Part shown: positions 1,668-10,965 of the stretch, one piece after another
Layout of the letters: every line of letters starts with the position of its first letter
Numbering within the stretch: position 1 is the first letter of the stretch
Origin: a virus
Length of the DNA stretch: 12,554 nucleotides
Strand: one strand, 5' to 3'
Virus genome (UHGV): UHGV-0141061
The notes under the pieces: generated by a model
Databases searched by the model: none
Seen by the model: the letters and a program-made list of their open reading frames with translations, nothing else
What the model was told of the DNA's origin: nothing
Translations under genes and position numbers: made by a program

Positions 1668-2849
1668 TCACCCTTTCCCAACAACAGTGCTAAAAAAAGA
1701 ATGCTTCAGAGTAAACTCTAGAGTCAATGTGTAGCGAGATTCAGAATCAGGTTGTGTCATCCCCGATGAGCACAAATACCAATTAACACCGTATGTATTA
1801 CTACTACCAAAAATTGCAGAGTTGATGGGTATTACGCCTAAGGTATTATCATAATTAACCCTTACATCAACCATAGACCTTTTGATATCAACAGCCGTGC
1901 CAGTAAACGTCCCTGATAACTTAGGCAATACAATGACAGTCCTTCGCACAGGCAGCTTATATAAAGTACAGATAAGTGAAGAGTTGTATGTATTCTTAAA
2001 TGTATACGCTAAATCACTTCCTTTGGTTAGTAGGTTAACTTCACCTTTGTATTTTGGCGTGAAAGTGCTGCCAAGCAATCGGTACAAGTCAATTTCAGTA
2101 CCAGACATCTTAACTAAGGAATTATCCCATCCAGTGGTTGACTCTGTAAATGTTAGCGCGGAAGTTAGCTCGTTTAATGGATATGCTGATGGTGTAAAAT
2201 CTTTAATGTATGTAGATGCGTCTCTCTCATCAGCATAAACAATCTTACCGCCAGCCAGGTTGAACGTGCAATTGCTGAGATCAAAATCTCCGTATAACGT
2301 TGTCTCTTTGTCGATAGTGAAAGTCAGTGGCATAGTTGAGTAGATTTTCACTGGAGTTCCTTTAAACTCAGCAAAAACAGAATTCAACTGATCGCTATTT
2401 CTTTCACCATCAGCAGCAGCTATATCGTATACAGAAAGCCTGACCTCTAACCCCCCTATTATTTTGTAACCGTCTGGCGAACTAATTTCATCCATGAACC
2501 TTTGCTCAAACTGGTCAGGGTCATACTTCAGCACATTCGGAAAATAGAACTGCTGAGAACCGTACGCATCGTATACAGCCATAGAATGGCCTTGCACAGT
2601 TACGAATTTGGCAATCTGTCCGTTATATACAGGATACCCGCCAGCGTTAATGATGATTGGCTGTGCAACAGGAACGTGAGAACCGTCTTCGTTTTCCACA
2701 TAAACCTGAATCTGGTTTTCAGGATTTACCGGGTCAGTGCCAATTTTACCGATATAAATTTTGCCATTGGCTACGGCTTTAAAAGAACGAGCCATAGTGA
2801 AGAGTTGCGAAGGCATGCTTACCACAACATTTGCGGTGATATCTGACAT
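1668..2849 (-). CDS. P22-type tailspike, N-terminal part including the head-binding domain; ends at an in-frame TGA
   Basis: From ATG 2847-2849 (GGAG 7 nt upstream): [78 protein letters not shown], which closely parallels the P22 gp9 head-binding domain as I recall it. The track's start at 2897 is an upstream in-frame extension. Confidence 0.8.
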
Positions 2850-2937
2850 TTCATTGCTCCAGACGAATGATATGATGCAACCATGATGTGATTGCATACC
2901 GAAATGGTACTATTGAGTATTTATCCAGTAGGTTACG

Positions 2938-3231
2938 ATGCCATTCCACCCAACTGGTGAGGCATCAAGGATGTACAGCAAATACGACGAGGCGCAGTTT
3001 CACTTGAGACTTCCGCATGAACTTCACGCGAAAATTAAACAGCGTGCGAAGATGAATAACAGGTCGCTGAACTCAGAGATAATTGCAGCGATTGAAGAAT
3101 CATTGACTAAACAAAGCTCTGCATCAGTTTACATTGACGATGCAGAGCGTATGGCAGAACAACAATCCGATATGGTAAAGAAAATTGTCTTTGATACGCT
3201 CAAAGAGCTATATAAAAAAGACAGCAGCTAA
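2938..3231 (+). CDS. mnt: Mnt-like ribbon-helix-helix repressor
   Basis: FHLRLPHELHAKIKQRAKMNNRSLNSEIIAAIEESL...DAERMAEQQSDMVKKIVFDTLKELYKK parallels P22 Mnt (FNFRMPMEVREKLKFRAEANGRSMNSELLQIVQDAL...DAERLADEQSELVKKMVFDTLKDLYKK, recalled). An alternative start is ATG 2971. Confidence 0.8.
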   Translation: MPFHPTGEASRMYSKYDEAQFHLRLPHELHAKIKQRAKMNNRSLNSEIIAAIEESLTKQSSASVYIDDAERMAEQQSDMVKKIVFDTLKELYKKDSS

Positions 3232-3238
3232 CTATCAG

Positions 3239-3742
3239 TTACGGAGGATTCCCGATAGGGGGTAAGGGGGTATTTGTATTTATTGTCTTTTGTATATTGT
3301 CTTTTGTGTTTGACTGATTCGGTAAATTGCTTTTTACCGATTTGGTGAAGGTTTGTTTTACCGAATTGGTAAATGTTTTACCGAATCCGTTAACTTTCGT
3401 TTTCCACTCGGAAATGTTTGTATTCATACCAACTTGACGCCCCACCTGAATGAGAACTCCCATTCTGATAAGCTCGTTTTTGGCGGTAGAGCATTTGGTT
3501 GGTGCCATGCCAGTGAGTTCAGCGAACTGTTCGTTTCCGATCCAATCTATTTTTTTGTTGTAACCGTATGTCTTGCGCCACACAGCCATAACAATCAGTA
3601 ACTGATGTAGAGTAAGTCCAGAAAGCATGGCGGCTTCTAACAGTGTGTTTGCAGTCCGAGTGTAGCCATCTTCGAGTTCTGCCACGCGATGCTCCACGAC
3701 CTCCAGTTGAGGCCTGTAATCAGCTAACTTAACGACGCCCAT
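3239..3742 (-). CDS. Replication initiator O-like protein, N-terminal (iteron-binding) domain only; C-terminal domain absent
   Basis: DGYTRTANTLLEA..LTLHQLLIVMAVWRKTYGYNKKIDWIGNEQFAELTGMAPTKCSTAKNELIRMGVLIQ..NISEW parallels the lambda O N-terminal domain (recalled). AGGAG lies upstream of ATG 3740-3742. The ORF ends at TAA 3239-3241 just after the iteron and A+T-rich segment, where lambda O continues for about 130 more codons. Confidence 0.7.
   Translation of the reverse strand: MGVVKLADYRPQLEVVEHRVAELEDGYTRTANTLLEAAMLSGLTLHQLLIVMAVWRKTYGYNKKIDWIGNEQFAELTGMAPTKCSTAKNELIRMGVLIQVGRQVGMNTNISEWKTKVNGFGKTFTNSVKQTFTKSVKSNLPNQSNTKDNIQKTINTNTPLPPIGNPP
3318..3393. repeat. ori-like iteron array inside the O-like gene
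   Basis: Three direct 18-bp repeats TTTTACCGA(T/A)TTGGT(G/A)AA at 3332-3349 and 3356-3373 and TTTTACCGAATCCGTTAA at 3376-3393, plus an inverted partial copy ATTCGGTAAA at 3318-3327; an A+T-rich segment follows at about 3270-3317, arranged as in lambda ori. Confidence 0.5.
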
Positions 3743-6557: not shown

Positions 6558-6758
6558 ATGATTACGCTAAGCGAAATGCTTCGCTCATATAAACCAGATG
6601 AACACACTAAGGACGCTATCGACTGGCTGGAAGATGATGACTGTAACTATCAGGAAAAAGCCGCTGAATGGTTCTGGGATGCAATAACCGAAAGAGTTAA
6701 GGCTGAATATGCCTTCGCAATATTCAAACGCAGACACATTTTTGGAGAAGCTGCATGA
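6558..6758 (+). CDS. Small acidic hypothetical protein (66 aa), first gene of the PL operon
   Basis: GGAGG 9 nt upstream of ATG 6558; stop overlaps the next start (ATGA at 6755-6758), implying translational coupling; no homolog recognised. Confidence 0.5.
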   Translation: MITLSEMLRSYKPDEHTKDAIDWLEDDDCNYQEKAAEWFWDAITERVKAEYAFAIFKRRHIFGEAA

Positions 6759-7090
6759 GCAATATCGTTGAATTCGTTAAACAGCAGGAGCAGTTATTCT
6801 GCGGAGCATTGACTGAACAGACGGTGACATGGGCTAAGGAAAGCCAGTTTGCAATTCAGTATTTCCAGAAAAACGATTACCTGGCTAAAACAGCACTGGC
6901 AAATCCAACCAGCGCACAGAACGCCATCATCAATGTTGCGGCGATCGGCATCACCTTAAACCCGGCCAGCAAACTGGCTTATCTGGTTCCTCGCGACGGC
7001 ATGGTGTGCCTTGATATCAGTTACATGGGATTACTTCATCTTGCGCAATCGACAGGATCAATTAAGTGGGGGCAATGCAAACTGGTGTAA
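6755..7090 (+). CDS. RecT/Red-beta-family recombinase, N-terminal fragment (truncated)
   Basis: ..NAIINVAAIGITLNPASKLAYLVPRDGMVCLDISYMGLLHLAQSTGSI.. follows the conserved RecT core pattern (E. coli RecT ..IVQCSQLGLEPGSALGHAYLLPFG..IIGYRGMIDLARRSGQI.., recalled) but stops at 111 aa where full-length proteins have about 270. Confidence 0.5.
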   Translation: MSNIVEFVKQQEQLFCGALTEQTVTWAKESQFAIQYFQKNDYLAKTALANPTSAQNAIINVAAIGITLNPASKLAYLVPRDGMVCLDISYMGLLHLAQSTGSIKWGQCKLV

Positions 7091-8274: not shown

Positions 8275-8466
8275 ATGACCGATACCAGCCTGATTCCTGA
8301 GAAAGAAGTGATGAACAAGCTCGGTGTTTCATCACGTCAGACAATCTGGAACTATACCAAACGGCACGGATTTCCGAAGCCAGTCAGAACCCACCCCAAA
8401 TCATACCTTCGTGAAGCTGTTGAAGGGTGGATTCTTAACGGTGGCGTTAATCAGAAATGCTCCTGA
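8275..8466 (+). CDS. AlpA/Xis-family DNA-binding protein (excisionase or regulator)
   Basis: GGAGA upstream of ATG 8275; ..MNKLGVSSRQTIWNYTKRHGFPKPVRT..YLREAVEGWI is the AlpA-type winged-helix pattern; lies beside the integrase; its 3' end overlaps the integrase 3' end by 20 bp. Confidence 0.8.
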   Translation: MTDTSLIPEKEVMNKLGVSSRQTIWNYTKRHGFPKPVRTHPKSYLREAVEGWILNGGVNQKCS

Positions 8467-8920
8467 TGTGCCAGAACAATTTATCAGCGTGAAGCTCATA
8501 CGCTTTGCGCTGAGCCTCTATCCAATCGAGTTTATTGTATACGGACATTATCCCGCCAAGTTCATGACCGAGCATTCGCTCAGTAACATGAGGCTCGACA
8601 TTCATCTCGGACAGCCGTGTAACAAGCGTTCTTCTGAAATCATGTGTTCGCCAGTAACCTAGGTCCATCCCTCCCCTTATTCTATTTACGAATCGGTTGG
8701 CTGCAGCGATGCTGATCGGTTTGTTTATGTCTTCTCCAGGGAAAAGAACATCATTGTACGTTGTCATGGCCTTTTCGAGGAAAGGCTTAATTTGTTCGAA
8801 GATTGGACGGCGGATAACATTACCCATCTTGCTATGCTCTTTCGGTACGGTCCATACGTTGTCCAGCAGGTCAAATTCTGTCTTTATTGCCAGCCTAAGT
8901 TCTGAGAGCCTCGCCCCCAC
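8447..8920 (-). pseudogene. Tyrosine integrase (P4 type), C-terminal catalytic fragment
   Basis: ..GARLSELRLAIKTEFDLLDNVWTVP..HDFRRT..LGHELGGIMSVYNKLDW.. shows the catalytic R/H-x-x-R/Y region; its frame differs from the central fragment at a C5 run (8914-8918). Confidence 0.8.
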
Positions 8921-9136
8921 AGCATAAGCATCTGATGAAGTAGCTTATTTGACGTAGACGCACGGCTTCTTTCAATAGCAAGCCAAATCTTAGCCAGTTC
9001 GTGATACGACAGTACCCGATCCCCTACCTCAGCGCGGGAGCCGAAGTCCCTTGGTTGGATGCTCATAATTGCGCAACTATCTATCAACTGACGCCGCATG
9101 CACCAACTAATTGCTGATCTTAGTTGACTTAGCACC
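8884..9136 (-). pseudogene. Tyrosine integrase, central fragment between the IS insertion and the frameshift
   Basis: In frame with the N-terminal fragment once the IS and one target duplication are removed (1341 bp, a multiple of 3); ends at a stop 8884-8886 created by the frameshift. Confidence 0.6.
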
Positions 9137-9200
9137 TGATGTAGCCCCCTGAAACACCAGACAGTAGCTGTATCTCCAGATAAGAGATAGGCTTGAATAT

Positions 9201-9596
9201 ATGTCTAACACTAACACCAATATTGAGATGACCGGGATCCTGTTAGGGCAAGAAGTCCGTAAACGTAAAACTCCTCAGGAGAAGATCGCCATTATCCAGC
9301 AGACGATGGAGCCGGGTATGAATGTCTCCCATGTCGCCCGCCTGCATGGTATCCAGCCCAGCCTGCTGTTTAAGTGGAAGAAGCAATATCAGGAAGGCAG
9401 CCTCACCGCCGTTGCGGCTGGAGAGGAAGTCGTTCCTGCTTCTGAGCTTACTGCTGCTCTGAAGCAGGTCCGGGAGCTTCAGCGCCTTCTGGGCAAGAAG
9501 ACGATAGAAGTTGAGATCCTAAAAGAAGCCGTGGAGTACGGTCAGTCGCGAAAATGGATAGCGCACGCGCCCTTGTTGCCAAAGGACGGGGAATAG
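9201..9596 (+). CDS. IS3-family transposase OrfA (helix-turn-helix and leucine zipper)
   Basis: ..[78 protein letters not shown].. resembles IS2 OrfA. Confidence 0.85.
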
Positions 9597-10435
9597 CCAT
9601 GGTCAGCCGGACCATGGGCGTGTCGCGTGCGCAACTGTCACTGCGGATTAACCGTTCTGCCGACTGGCAGGACAGGCGCTGTAACCGGCGTAATGAAGAA
9701 GCAGACGCAGAAATACTGTCGGCTATCCTCAACATTATCAGCGATATGCCGAGTTATGGTTATCGACGCGTGTGGGGCATCCTGCGCAAGCAACGTCGCA
9801 CAGAGGGACAGCCACCTGTGAATGCCAAACGGCTTTACAGGATAATGAGCGAGCATAACCTGTTGTTGTTGCATCACAAACCAGAGCGACCGAAGCGTGA
9901 ACATAAGGGCAAGATAGCGGTGGCAGAAAGCGATATGCGCTGGTGTTCAGATGGCTTCGAGTTCGGCTGCGACAACGGCGAAAAACTGCGGGTAACGTTC
10001 GCGCTGGACTGCTGCGACCGTGAGGCCATAGACTGGGCAGCAAGCACGGGAGGCTATGACAGTTCGACCGTGCAGGATGTGATGCTGAGGTCGGTGGAAA
10101 AGCGCTTCGGCGACAGGCTGCCGGAAACACCAGTGCAGTGGCTGACGGACAACGGTTCAGCATATACCGCGCATGAAACGCGGAGGTTCGCCAAAGAGCT
10201 GAATCTGGAGCCATGTACAACAGCGGTGAGCAGCCCGCAGAGCAATGGCATGGCCGAACGGTTCGTGAAGACGATGAAGGAAGACTATATCGCGTTCATG
10301 CCGAAACCGGATGTGAGAACAGCCCTGCGGAACCTTGCAGCGGCGTTCACGCATTACAATGAAAATCACCCGCATAGTGCGCTGGGATATCACTCTCCGA
10401 GAGAATACCGGCGGCAGCGGGCATCGTTAACTTAA
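9554..10435 (+). CDS. IS3-family transposase OrfB (DDE catalytic domain), in the -1 frame relative to OrfA
   Basis: ..[92 protein letters not shown].. is a DDE integrase-core pattern resembling IS2 OrfB; overlaps orfA by 43 nt. Confidence 0.85.
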
Positions 10436-10472
10436 GATACAAAAGCTGTCCGGAAATGGCGGGTCAAGATCA

Positions 10473-10965
10473 GCACCTGCCTTGCTCGGCGTGGATTATC
10501 TTTTTCTTCTTCGGTAAGCAGGTCAACCCATTGCTTAACCGTGATAGAAGATGCCGGACGATTAGGGAAGGCGTCATGCATGCGCTTCATAACCGTTGAT
10601 CGGTAAAGTGCCTGGGTCTTTTCTCTGAGAGTTGTAGAGACGTAGTTGTCGAACCAGTAGTCGAGACACTGGGCGACCGTCATGGAGTTCTCCACCTTCT
10701 CTTCAAAATAGGTGCGTGGATCCGTTCCTGAGAAATAGAGCTTCCGCAAGTCAGCAGTGATCTGTCTGGCATCCTTCAAAGACAGGGATGGGTATCGACC
10801 AAGCCCAAGTCGTTTAGGCTTGCCATACCAGCGATAGCGGTACTGGAACTGGATGACCCCCTTCGGTGAAATTCGTACGCTGAGGCCATCGGCATCAGCC
10901 ACTTCTTGTGGGCCCGAATATGGTTTACCATAAATAGTACGCAGTTTTGTGTCGCTTATAGCCAT
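10473..10965 (-). pseudogene. Tyrosine integrase (P4 type), N-terminal fragment upstream of the IS insertion
   Basis: MAISDTKLRTIYGKPYSGPQEVADADGLSVRISPKGVIQFQYRYRWYGKPKRLGLGRYPSLSLKDAR is the characteristic N-terminal arm-binding domain of P4-type integrases; the track ORF continues 13 codons into the IS before stopping. Confidence 0.8.

Follow-up and report, generated by a model that had tools for sequence, protein, structure and literature searches.

An ISEcl1-like insertion sequence in the integrase gene of a defective sbcB-adjacent prophage remnant, and the target duplications of its copies

The window, meaning the whole stretch of 12,554 nucleotides that was analysed, comes from the virus genome UHGV-0141061. 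The host element is a lambdoid, P22-like prophage that adjoins sbcB in an E. coli-like chromosome. The integrase gene of this prophage lies in two parts, and the DNA between them, at 9137-10472, is a complete insertion sequence of 1,336 bp that belongs to the IS2 group of the IS3 family. The features of this part of the window are listed below in the order of their coordinates.

8447-9136, minus strand: 3' part of the integrase gene with the catalytic domain, frameshifted (domain search and alignment)
8914-8918, minus strand: run of five C where intact alleles have six, a 1-nt deletion that shifts the frame at about codon 236 (alignment with the intact allele L007)
9132-9136, no strand assigned: left GCACC of the target-site duplication, present once in uninterrupted integrase alleles
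9137-10472, plus strand: complete ISEcl1-like insertion sequence, IS3 family, IS2 group (full-length 100% identical copies, 52 sites, 96.6% identity to ISEcl1)
9137-9177, plus strand: left terminal inverted repeat, about 40 bp, imperfect, starting with 5'-TG (alignment with the right end and with the left end of IS2)
9201-9596, plus strand: orfA, a HTH_Tnp_1 DNA-binding protein of 131 aa from the first ATG (PF01527, 68 bits; 75% identity to IS2 InsC)
9551-9554, plus strand: A4 run (CGA AAA U), first candidate -1 frameshift site, aligned with the A6G window of IS2
9554-10435, plus strand: orfB, HTH_21 and rve DDE core, 293 aa from ATG, in the -1 frame (63% identity to IS2 InsD)
9561-9632, plus strand: predicted mRNA structure, closed by a 9-bp stem of GCGCACGCG (9561-9569) and CGCGUGCGC (9624-9632) (minimum free energy fold)
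9579-9585, plus strand: CCA AAG G, second candidate -1 frameshift site (A AAG) (alignment of variants)
10433-10472, plus strand: right terminal inverted repeat, about 40 bp, ending with CA-3', homologous to the right end of IS2
10473-10477, no strand assigned: right copy of the target-site duplication GCACC (flank comparison)
10478-10965, minus strand: 5' part of the integrase gene, codons 1-163, with the Arm-DNA-bind_3 domain (open reading frames and domain search)

Fifty-two independent sites of insertion define the ends of the element. Copies at unrelated sites have all 1,336 bp in common with it from end to end, and the flanks of these copies are all different. The element opens with TGATGTAGCCCCC and closes with GGGTCAAGATCA, and the boundary stretches read TGATGTAG... 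on the left and ...CAAGATCA on the right. Full-length copies that are 100% identical to it are present at unrelated sites in at least nine E. coli chromosomes. Copies of 90-99% identity are found in many other Enterobacterales, and the match always ends at 9137 and 10472. Contigs of exactly 1,336 bp also occur in three short-read draft assemblies.

The internal anatomy is that of an IS3-family element. The terminal inverted repeats are imperfect and have the 5'-TG...CA-3' tips that are a feature of the family. The overlap of orfA (9201-9596) and orfB (9554-10435), the latter read in the -1 frame, is the ORF layout of the family as well; in RefSeq copies, orfA starts at the ATG equivalent to 9228. 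Domain matches to PF01527, PF00665, PF13683 and PF13276 supply the helix-turn-helix and DDE components expected of IS3-family proteins. The catalytic residues of OrfB were placed by three conserved motifs and by alignment with IS2, and they are D133, D199 and E235; the second D and the E lie 36 residues apart, and E+7 is a K. A modelled OrfAB fusion scores 268.8 bits against NF033516, the NCBIfam model of the IS3 family, for which the cut-off is 160.

The initial annotation had described the insertion as an IS2-like element, and its placement in the IS2 group of the IS3 family holds. OrfA and OrfB are 75% and 63% identical to those of IS2A of E. coli K-12 (insC1/insD1), and the inverted repeats are homologous. 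However, the DNA identity is 69%, and the element falls below the cut-offs of the NCBIfam models for IS2 TnpB and TnpA (NF006918, 418.5 bits against a cut-off of 597; NF006928, 165 against 229). As a result, "IS2-like" is right, and IS2 itself is ruled out. In both elements orfA and orfB overlap in the 0 and -1 frames, the left and right inverted repeats, each about 40 bp long, are offset by 1 nt, and the frameshift window is followed by the same 9-bp stem. The copy in the window also shares the 5-bp duplication of IS2. In contrast, its tips are TG...CA whereas the left tip of IS2 is TA, it has CGAAAAU where IS2 has the A6G slippery motif, and the duplications across its copies are mostly 15-17 bp, not 5 bp.

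Over all 1,336 bp, the element is 96.6% identical at the nucleotide level to the ISEcl1 copy of pKPT698-mcr. This copy lies adjacent to mcr-8.2 and is named ISEcl1 in several papers (PMC8969419, PMC8805313). ISEcl1 is described as a 1,336-bp IS3-family element (PMC5001619) and has been assigned to the IS2 group (PMC10425158). ISEcl1 is an Enterobacter cloacae element catalogued in ISfinder, and its published length equals that of the element in the window. Other copies of this element sit in IS1, as in the published IS1X1::ISEcl1 arrangement (PMC7319535). By these sequence comparisons the element is ISEcl1-like, a name that follows copies named by other authors and not the ISfinder reference AF342826. 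With a nucleotide divergence of about 3.4% from the pKPT698-mcr copy, it may be an isoform of ISEcl1.

The integrase that received the element belongs to the tyrosine integrases. The repaired protein matches PF13356 (Arm-DNA-bind_3) at aa 4-85 and PF00589 (Phage_integrase) at aa 204-366, and the translation contains GARLSEL, HDFRRT and SVYNK, in keeping with the R...HxxR...Y of a tyrosine integrase catalytic domain. The ORF is not intact in the window, as the insertion sequence splits it at codons 163-165 and a frameshift follows at about codon 236. For an empty-site test, the element and one GCACC were removed and the joined flanks were searched. The joined flanks are 100% identical over 408 nt to the uninterrupted integrase of E. 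coli EC3 and XJ23PTE1. At a coverage of at least 80%, the query matches 563 genomes. Because the empty site is 100% identical, the GCACC duplication is real and not a 1-in-1,024 coincidence. The empty site is also exact, with one GCACC and no bases lost, and an origin of the 5-bp repeat by chance or as the leftover of a longer duplication is thereby rejected. The restored frame reads ...RRARQVLSQLRSAISW..., and the duplicated GCACC corresponds to codons 163-165 of the 392-aa integrase. The arm-binding domain (aa 4-85) thus lies on one side of the insertion point and the catalytic domain (aa 204-366) on the other.

These results bear out what had been proposed for the insertion site, namely that an insertion sequence at 9137-10472 is flanked by GCACC, that its removal restores a continuous integrase frame, and that it separates the N-terminal domain of the integrase from the rest. 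The ends match those of copies elsewhere, and the comparison with uninterrupted alleles in related prophages, which the initial annotation had suggested, gave a site with one GCACC. The insertion had further been described as relatively recent. Copies elsewhere match the element at 100% identity, its two GCACC repeats are still perfect, and the junction occurs in 0 of 5,426 complete E. coli genomes; all three agree with that description, and the insertion looks recent and private.

The length of the duplication is a different matter. Five bp is canonical for the IS2 group, but it is a minority outcome for the element in the window (3 sites against 30). We gathered 190 loci from E. coli genomes, plasmids, species-representative genomes, viral contigs and metagenomes, and the flanks of each full-length copy were compared. 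The 52 distinct sites are distributed as follows.

Perfect 15-bp direct repeat: 19 of 52 sites
16-bp repeat: 10 of 52 sites
17-bp repeat: 1 of 52 sites
5-bp repeat: 3 of 52 sites (the window, pOSUEC_D and an IMG/VR contig)
Imperfect 11-12-bp repeat: 1 of 52 sites
3-bp repeat: 1 of 52 sites
No repeat: 17 of 52 sites

The 17 sites without a repeat are probably rearrangements or chimeric assemblies. Duplications of 15-17 bp account for 30 of the 34 other copies with a clear repeat, and the 5-bp length of the IS2 group holds for the copy in the window but not for the element at large. That the longer repeats are false duplications was considered and, for the IS1 target, rejected, since the 16-mer that was hit inside IS1 is single-copy in intact IS1 elements. 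A second 5-bp case is borne out by its empty site, which R478 and many IncHI2 plasmids carry with 100% identity over 400 nt. Both duplication lengths arise from identical or 99.4%-identical copies, and the difference therefore does not come from sequence variants of the element. The mcr-8.2-adjacent ISEcl1 copy has a 16-bp repeat, and a relative of 77% identity has a decayed 15-bp repeat in which 11 of 15 positions match. An IS2 variant and IS2A have 5 bp.

Published descriptions give 5 bp for the IS2 subgroup of IS3 (PMC10045372, PMC10425158), and PMC10045372 lists 5 bp only. Our literature search turned up no paper that gives a duplication length for ISEcl1. Discrete classes of duplication length, about 10 bp or one helical turn apart, have been described for IS481EU, IS481 and IS1202 (PMC10045372). 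The classes there are 4, 15 and 25 bp, as compared with 5 and 15-17 bp here. The transposases are of the same retroviral-integrase-like DDE kind, but the families are different. The duplications of the element in the window also form two length classes that are about one DNA helical turn apart. It is possible, at odds that fall a little short of even, that in the ISEcl1 lineage, the 77% relative included, the joined target phosphates are normally 15-17 bp and occasionally 5 bp apart, whereas in IS2 they are only 5 bp apart. The copy in the window would then be one of the rare 5-bp events. The two-class pattern is a statistical one from database sequences, not a biochemical one, and ISfinder may already record it.

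If the pattern is true, the 'quantised' duplication lengths of IS481EU, IS481 and IS1202 would extend to the IS3 family. ISEcl1 and IS2, with 63% identity between their catalytic proteins, would also make a pair of close homologues for dissecting the spacing of the target cuts. Unless it is already in ISfinder, the pattern would break the textbook rule of a fixed duplication of 3, 4 or 5 bp for IS3-family subgroups, and IS-finding software that assumes a fixed length would be affected. The distribution of duplication lengths is the only part of this analysis that merits follow-up, and it may interest transposition specialists.

The integrase gene has a second lesion, the deletion at 8914-8918, which was overlooked in the initial annotation. 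Compared with the intact 392-aa allele L007, the joined integrase has 13 substitutions and one 1-nt deletion. The 392-aa integrases of lambdoid prophages at the sbcB site (e.g., WP_001007958.1) occupy the same sbcB-adjacent position and show only these 14 differences over the 1,179-nt gene, but the gene in the window is split by the insertion sequence and frameshifted. Of the 559 E. coli genomes that match the stretch with the C run, not one is as much as 99% identical over it, and among the matches listed the extra C is present in all but one. From these matches, the deletion looks as private as the insertion sequence; a sequencing error in the homopolymer would be another explanation. In an annotation, the two pieces of the integrase should be entered as a single pseudogene with two lesions, and the insertion sequence should be given as ISEcl1-like and not as IS2.

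The prophage itself is a remnant of about 11 kb. The sbcB site holds related prophages in hundreds of E. coli genomes, and comparison shows a fuller prophage at this same site in another genome. A search of the whole window for tRNA genes found none, and the attachment site adjoins sbcB rather than a tRNA gene. The O-like replication protein is an N-terminal fragment of 167 aa that abuts an Arc/Mnt-like gene and a tailspike gene, with no late region in between. The BstA-like gene is broken in two pieces, and 111 aa are left of the RecT-like protein. Because of the second integrase frameshift and the truncated O-like, BstA-like and RecT-like genes, the prophage is defective with or without the insertion sequence.

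It had been proposed that the insertion locks the prophage in the chromosome, which would make it the event that inactivated an otherwise functional integrase. The insertion does split the gene between the arm-binding and catalytic domains, and it appears to be recent and private. However, the independent frameshift at 8914-8918 disables the same gene, and the insertion may be older or younger than the other lesions. Moreover, a remnant whose replication, RecT-like and BstA-like genes are truncated, and in which the late region is missing, would be unable to make phage even if it were given a working Int. On this evidence, the proposal is not supported in its original form, and we consider it improbable that the insertion sequence was what immobilised the prophage. 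Far more improbable still is an assembly artefact, in which a repeat copy of the element was misplaced into the integrase gene. Some genomes have several copies of the element, and in short-read assemblies it collapses to 1,336-bp contigs, which could invite such an error. A mis-join, however, would not leave two perfect copies of 5 bp that occur only once in the empty site, and both flanks continue exactly across that site.

We favour, with a probability of about 0.93, the reading that an ISEcl1-type insertion sequence transposed into the integrase of an sbcB-adjacent prophage remnant and counts among several lesions of its decay, without being the event that immobilised it. The element entered at codons 163-165 and duplicated the 5 bp GCACC. 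By analogy with IS2, OrfAB would be the active transposase and would be made by rare -1 ribosomal frameshifting. Transposition probably followed the copy-out-paste-in pathway described for IS2, with a figure-of-eight and then a minicircle as intermediates (PMC3219604, PMC3299598). The abutted ends of the minicircle would attack the target with staggered cuts. Int is inactive, as the insertion parts its arm-binding N-terminal part from the catalytic domain. The element is a known one, and the event is ordinary and of an already known kind. It represents routine genome decay, in which a named insertion sequence disrupts the integrase of a dead prophage, and its importance lies mainly in annotation.

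The frameshift of IS2 takes place in an A6G window (PMC3219604). A slippery motif of this kind, with a structure downstream of it, is typical of IS3-family elements. The orfA/orfB overlap of the element in the window has no canonical X XXY YYZ slippery heptamer and offers only A4 (9551-9554) or A AAG (9581-9584). The initial annotation had held that frameshifting must use the A4 run. The position of this run is homologous to the A6G of IS2, and this part of the claim stands, but the necessity does not, as CCA AAG G (9579-9585) is a rival site. We put the chance of slippage at the A4 run at about even. The run is invariant in all variants, the 77%-identity relative included. A frameshift at CCA AAG G, which would move the slip site about 30 nt downstream of its position in IS2, seems rather unlikely, and slippage at a place other than A4 or A AAG is less likely again.

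Slippage of tRNA-Lys on A AAG is well established in E. coli, as in IS3. CCA AAG G is kept in all intact, ungapped variants of 90-100% identity and is missing from IS2 and L023, which instead retain A6G/A7G upstream. In the variant of the window, it is also followed after 12 nt by an 8-bp hairpin, CCAUGGUC...GACCAUGG. However, the 77% relative L190 (CCAACGG) and the variant L167 (CCAGAGG) lack the A AAG, yet both keep CGAAAAUGG. The downstream hairpin is not kept among the variants, and on that ground the inner hairpin at 9597-9617 was rejected as a conserved stimulator. The conserved 9-bp stem also speaks for the A4 run, as it starts 6 nt after the run, which is the classical spacing, and it would already be unwound once the ribosome had reached A AAG.

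A scan of 9100-10500 against Rfam, at E values up to 10, found no frameshift element and no other RNA family. An exact look-up of ten modelled OrfAB fusions in a protein collection, in which a join made by RefSeq/PGAP was sought, found 0 of the 10. The predicted fold of 9545-9645 does not differ significantly in stability from shuffled sequences (z = -1.43), and the support for the stem is modest, consisting of conservation and covariation only. The alignment used for the stem covers this lineage, a 77% relative, a more distant relative and IS2. Both arms of the stem are coding, and the observed level of conservation was reached by 25 of 500 shuffles. The stem encloses the remainder of the overlap beyond the A4 run, and all 180 of 180 pair cells across 20 distinct sequences are paired, with none broken. 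The changes within it consist of four pairs altered on one side to G.U and one pair altered on both sides, from C-G to U-A.

The ISEcl1-like element that splits the prophage integrase differs from most of its copies elsewhere in the length of its target duplication. When the insertion and its flanks (window 9132-10477) were set against the related loci L001-L191, 52 independent insertion sites could be distinguished. Target duplications of the same IS are 15-17 bp long at 30 of these sites, and a 5-bp duplication is found at only three, the window copy being one of them. The two length classes lie approximately one helical turn apart. Among related elements, IS2 and an IS2 variant generate 5-bp duplications, and a relative with 77% identity to the element generates duplications of about 15 bp.

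The element is present in many copies in some E. coli genomes, including those of strains EC2641 and ABWA45, and the latter (NZ_CP022154.1) carries it at 14 places. Active expansion of the element thus appears to be under way in certain strains. An identical insertion site with identical flanks also occurs across two genera, in Enterobacter sp. BRE11 (L011) and Pantoea septica (L025), and the copies at this common site have no target duplication. Such sharing suggests that the segment around the copy was transferred horizontally, or that the copy was rearranged.

The IS is not the only lesion in the integrase. A run of five Cs at window 8914-8918 replaces the six Cs of intact alleles, shifting the frame near codon 236. 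The extra base is present in all but one of the E. coli matches listed, and none of the 559 matching E. coli genomes reaches at least 99% identity over the stretch that contains the five-C run. The shortened run could be a homopolymer sequencing error. Decay extends to other genes of the prophage remnant, whose features are as follows.

1668-2897, minus strand: tailspike gene, ORF of 409 aa
2938-3231: Arc/Mnt-like gene
3239-3742, minus strand: O-like replication protein, N-terminal fragment of 167 aa
5403-6089: BstA-like pseudogene
6755-7090: RecT-like pseudogene

The BstA-like (KilA-N) abortive-infection gene is broken into two ORFs, one of 113 aa and the other of 101 aa, and the RecT-like protein is reduced to 111 aa; both genes are further pseudogenes. 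The O-like fragment directly abuts the Arc/Mnt-like gene (window 2938-3742) and the tailspike gene, which implies that a P22-like prophage has lost its entire late region. There is a comparable remnant in E. coli EC2641 (L006), and its tailspike gene contains an ISEcl1-like copy. In the window, matches of the tailspike ORF to tailspike profiles are confined to the N-terminal head-binding part. After a gap of 33 nt comes a separate ORF of 343 aa without a PHROG match (603-2897 for the pair, minus strand), and the two ORFs may represent a split or mosaic tailspike.

Unusual ends were observed in other copies. In two K. pneumoniae IncFIB(K) plasmids (L039, positions 2500-2640, and L045), a single C separates the right end of an ISEcl1 copy from the left end of IS2 (its first 98 bp, 99% identity), after which comes IS1. 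Two different IS2-group ends thus abut head-to-tail with a 1-nt spacer, an arrangement similar to a minicircle-type junction or to targeted insertion beside a related end. An odd end duplication occurs in one copy on a viral contig (L063, IMGVR_UViG_2788500177_000005), in which the element's own right end is repeated directly after it for 23 nt (ccggaaatggcgggtcaagatca) before the flank resumes.
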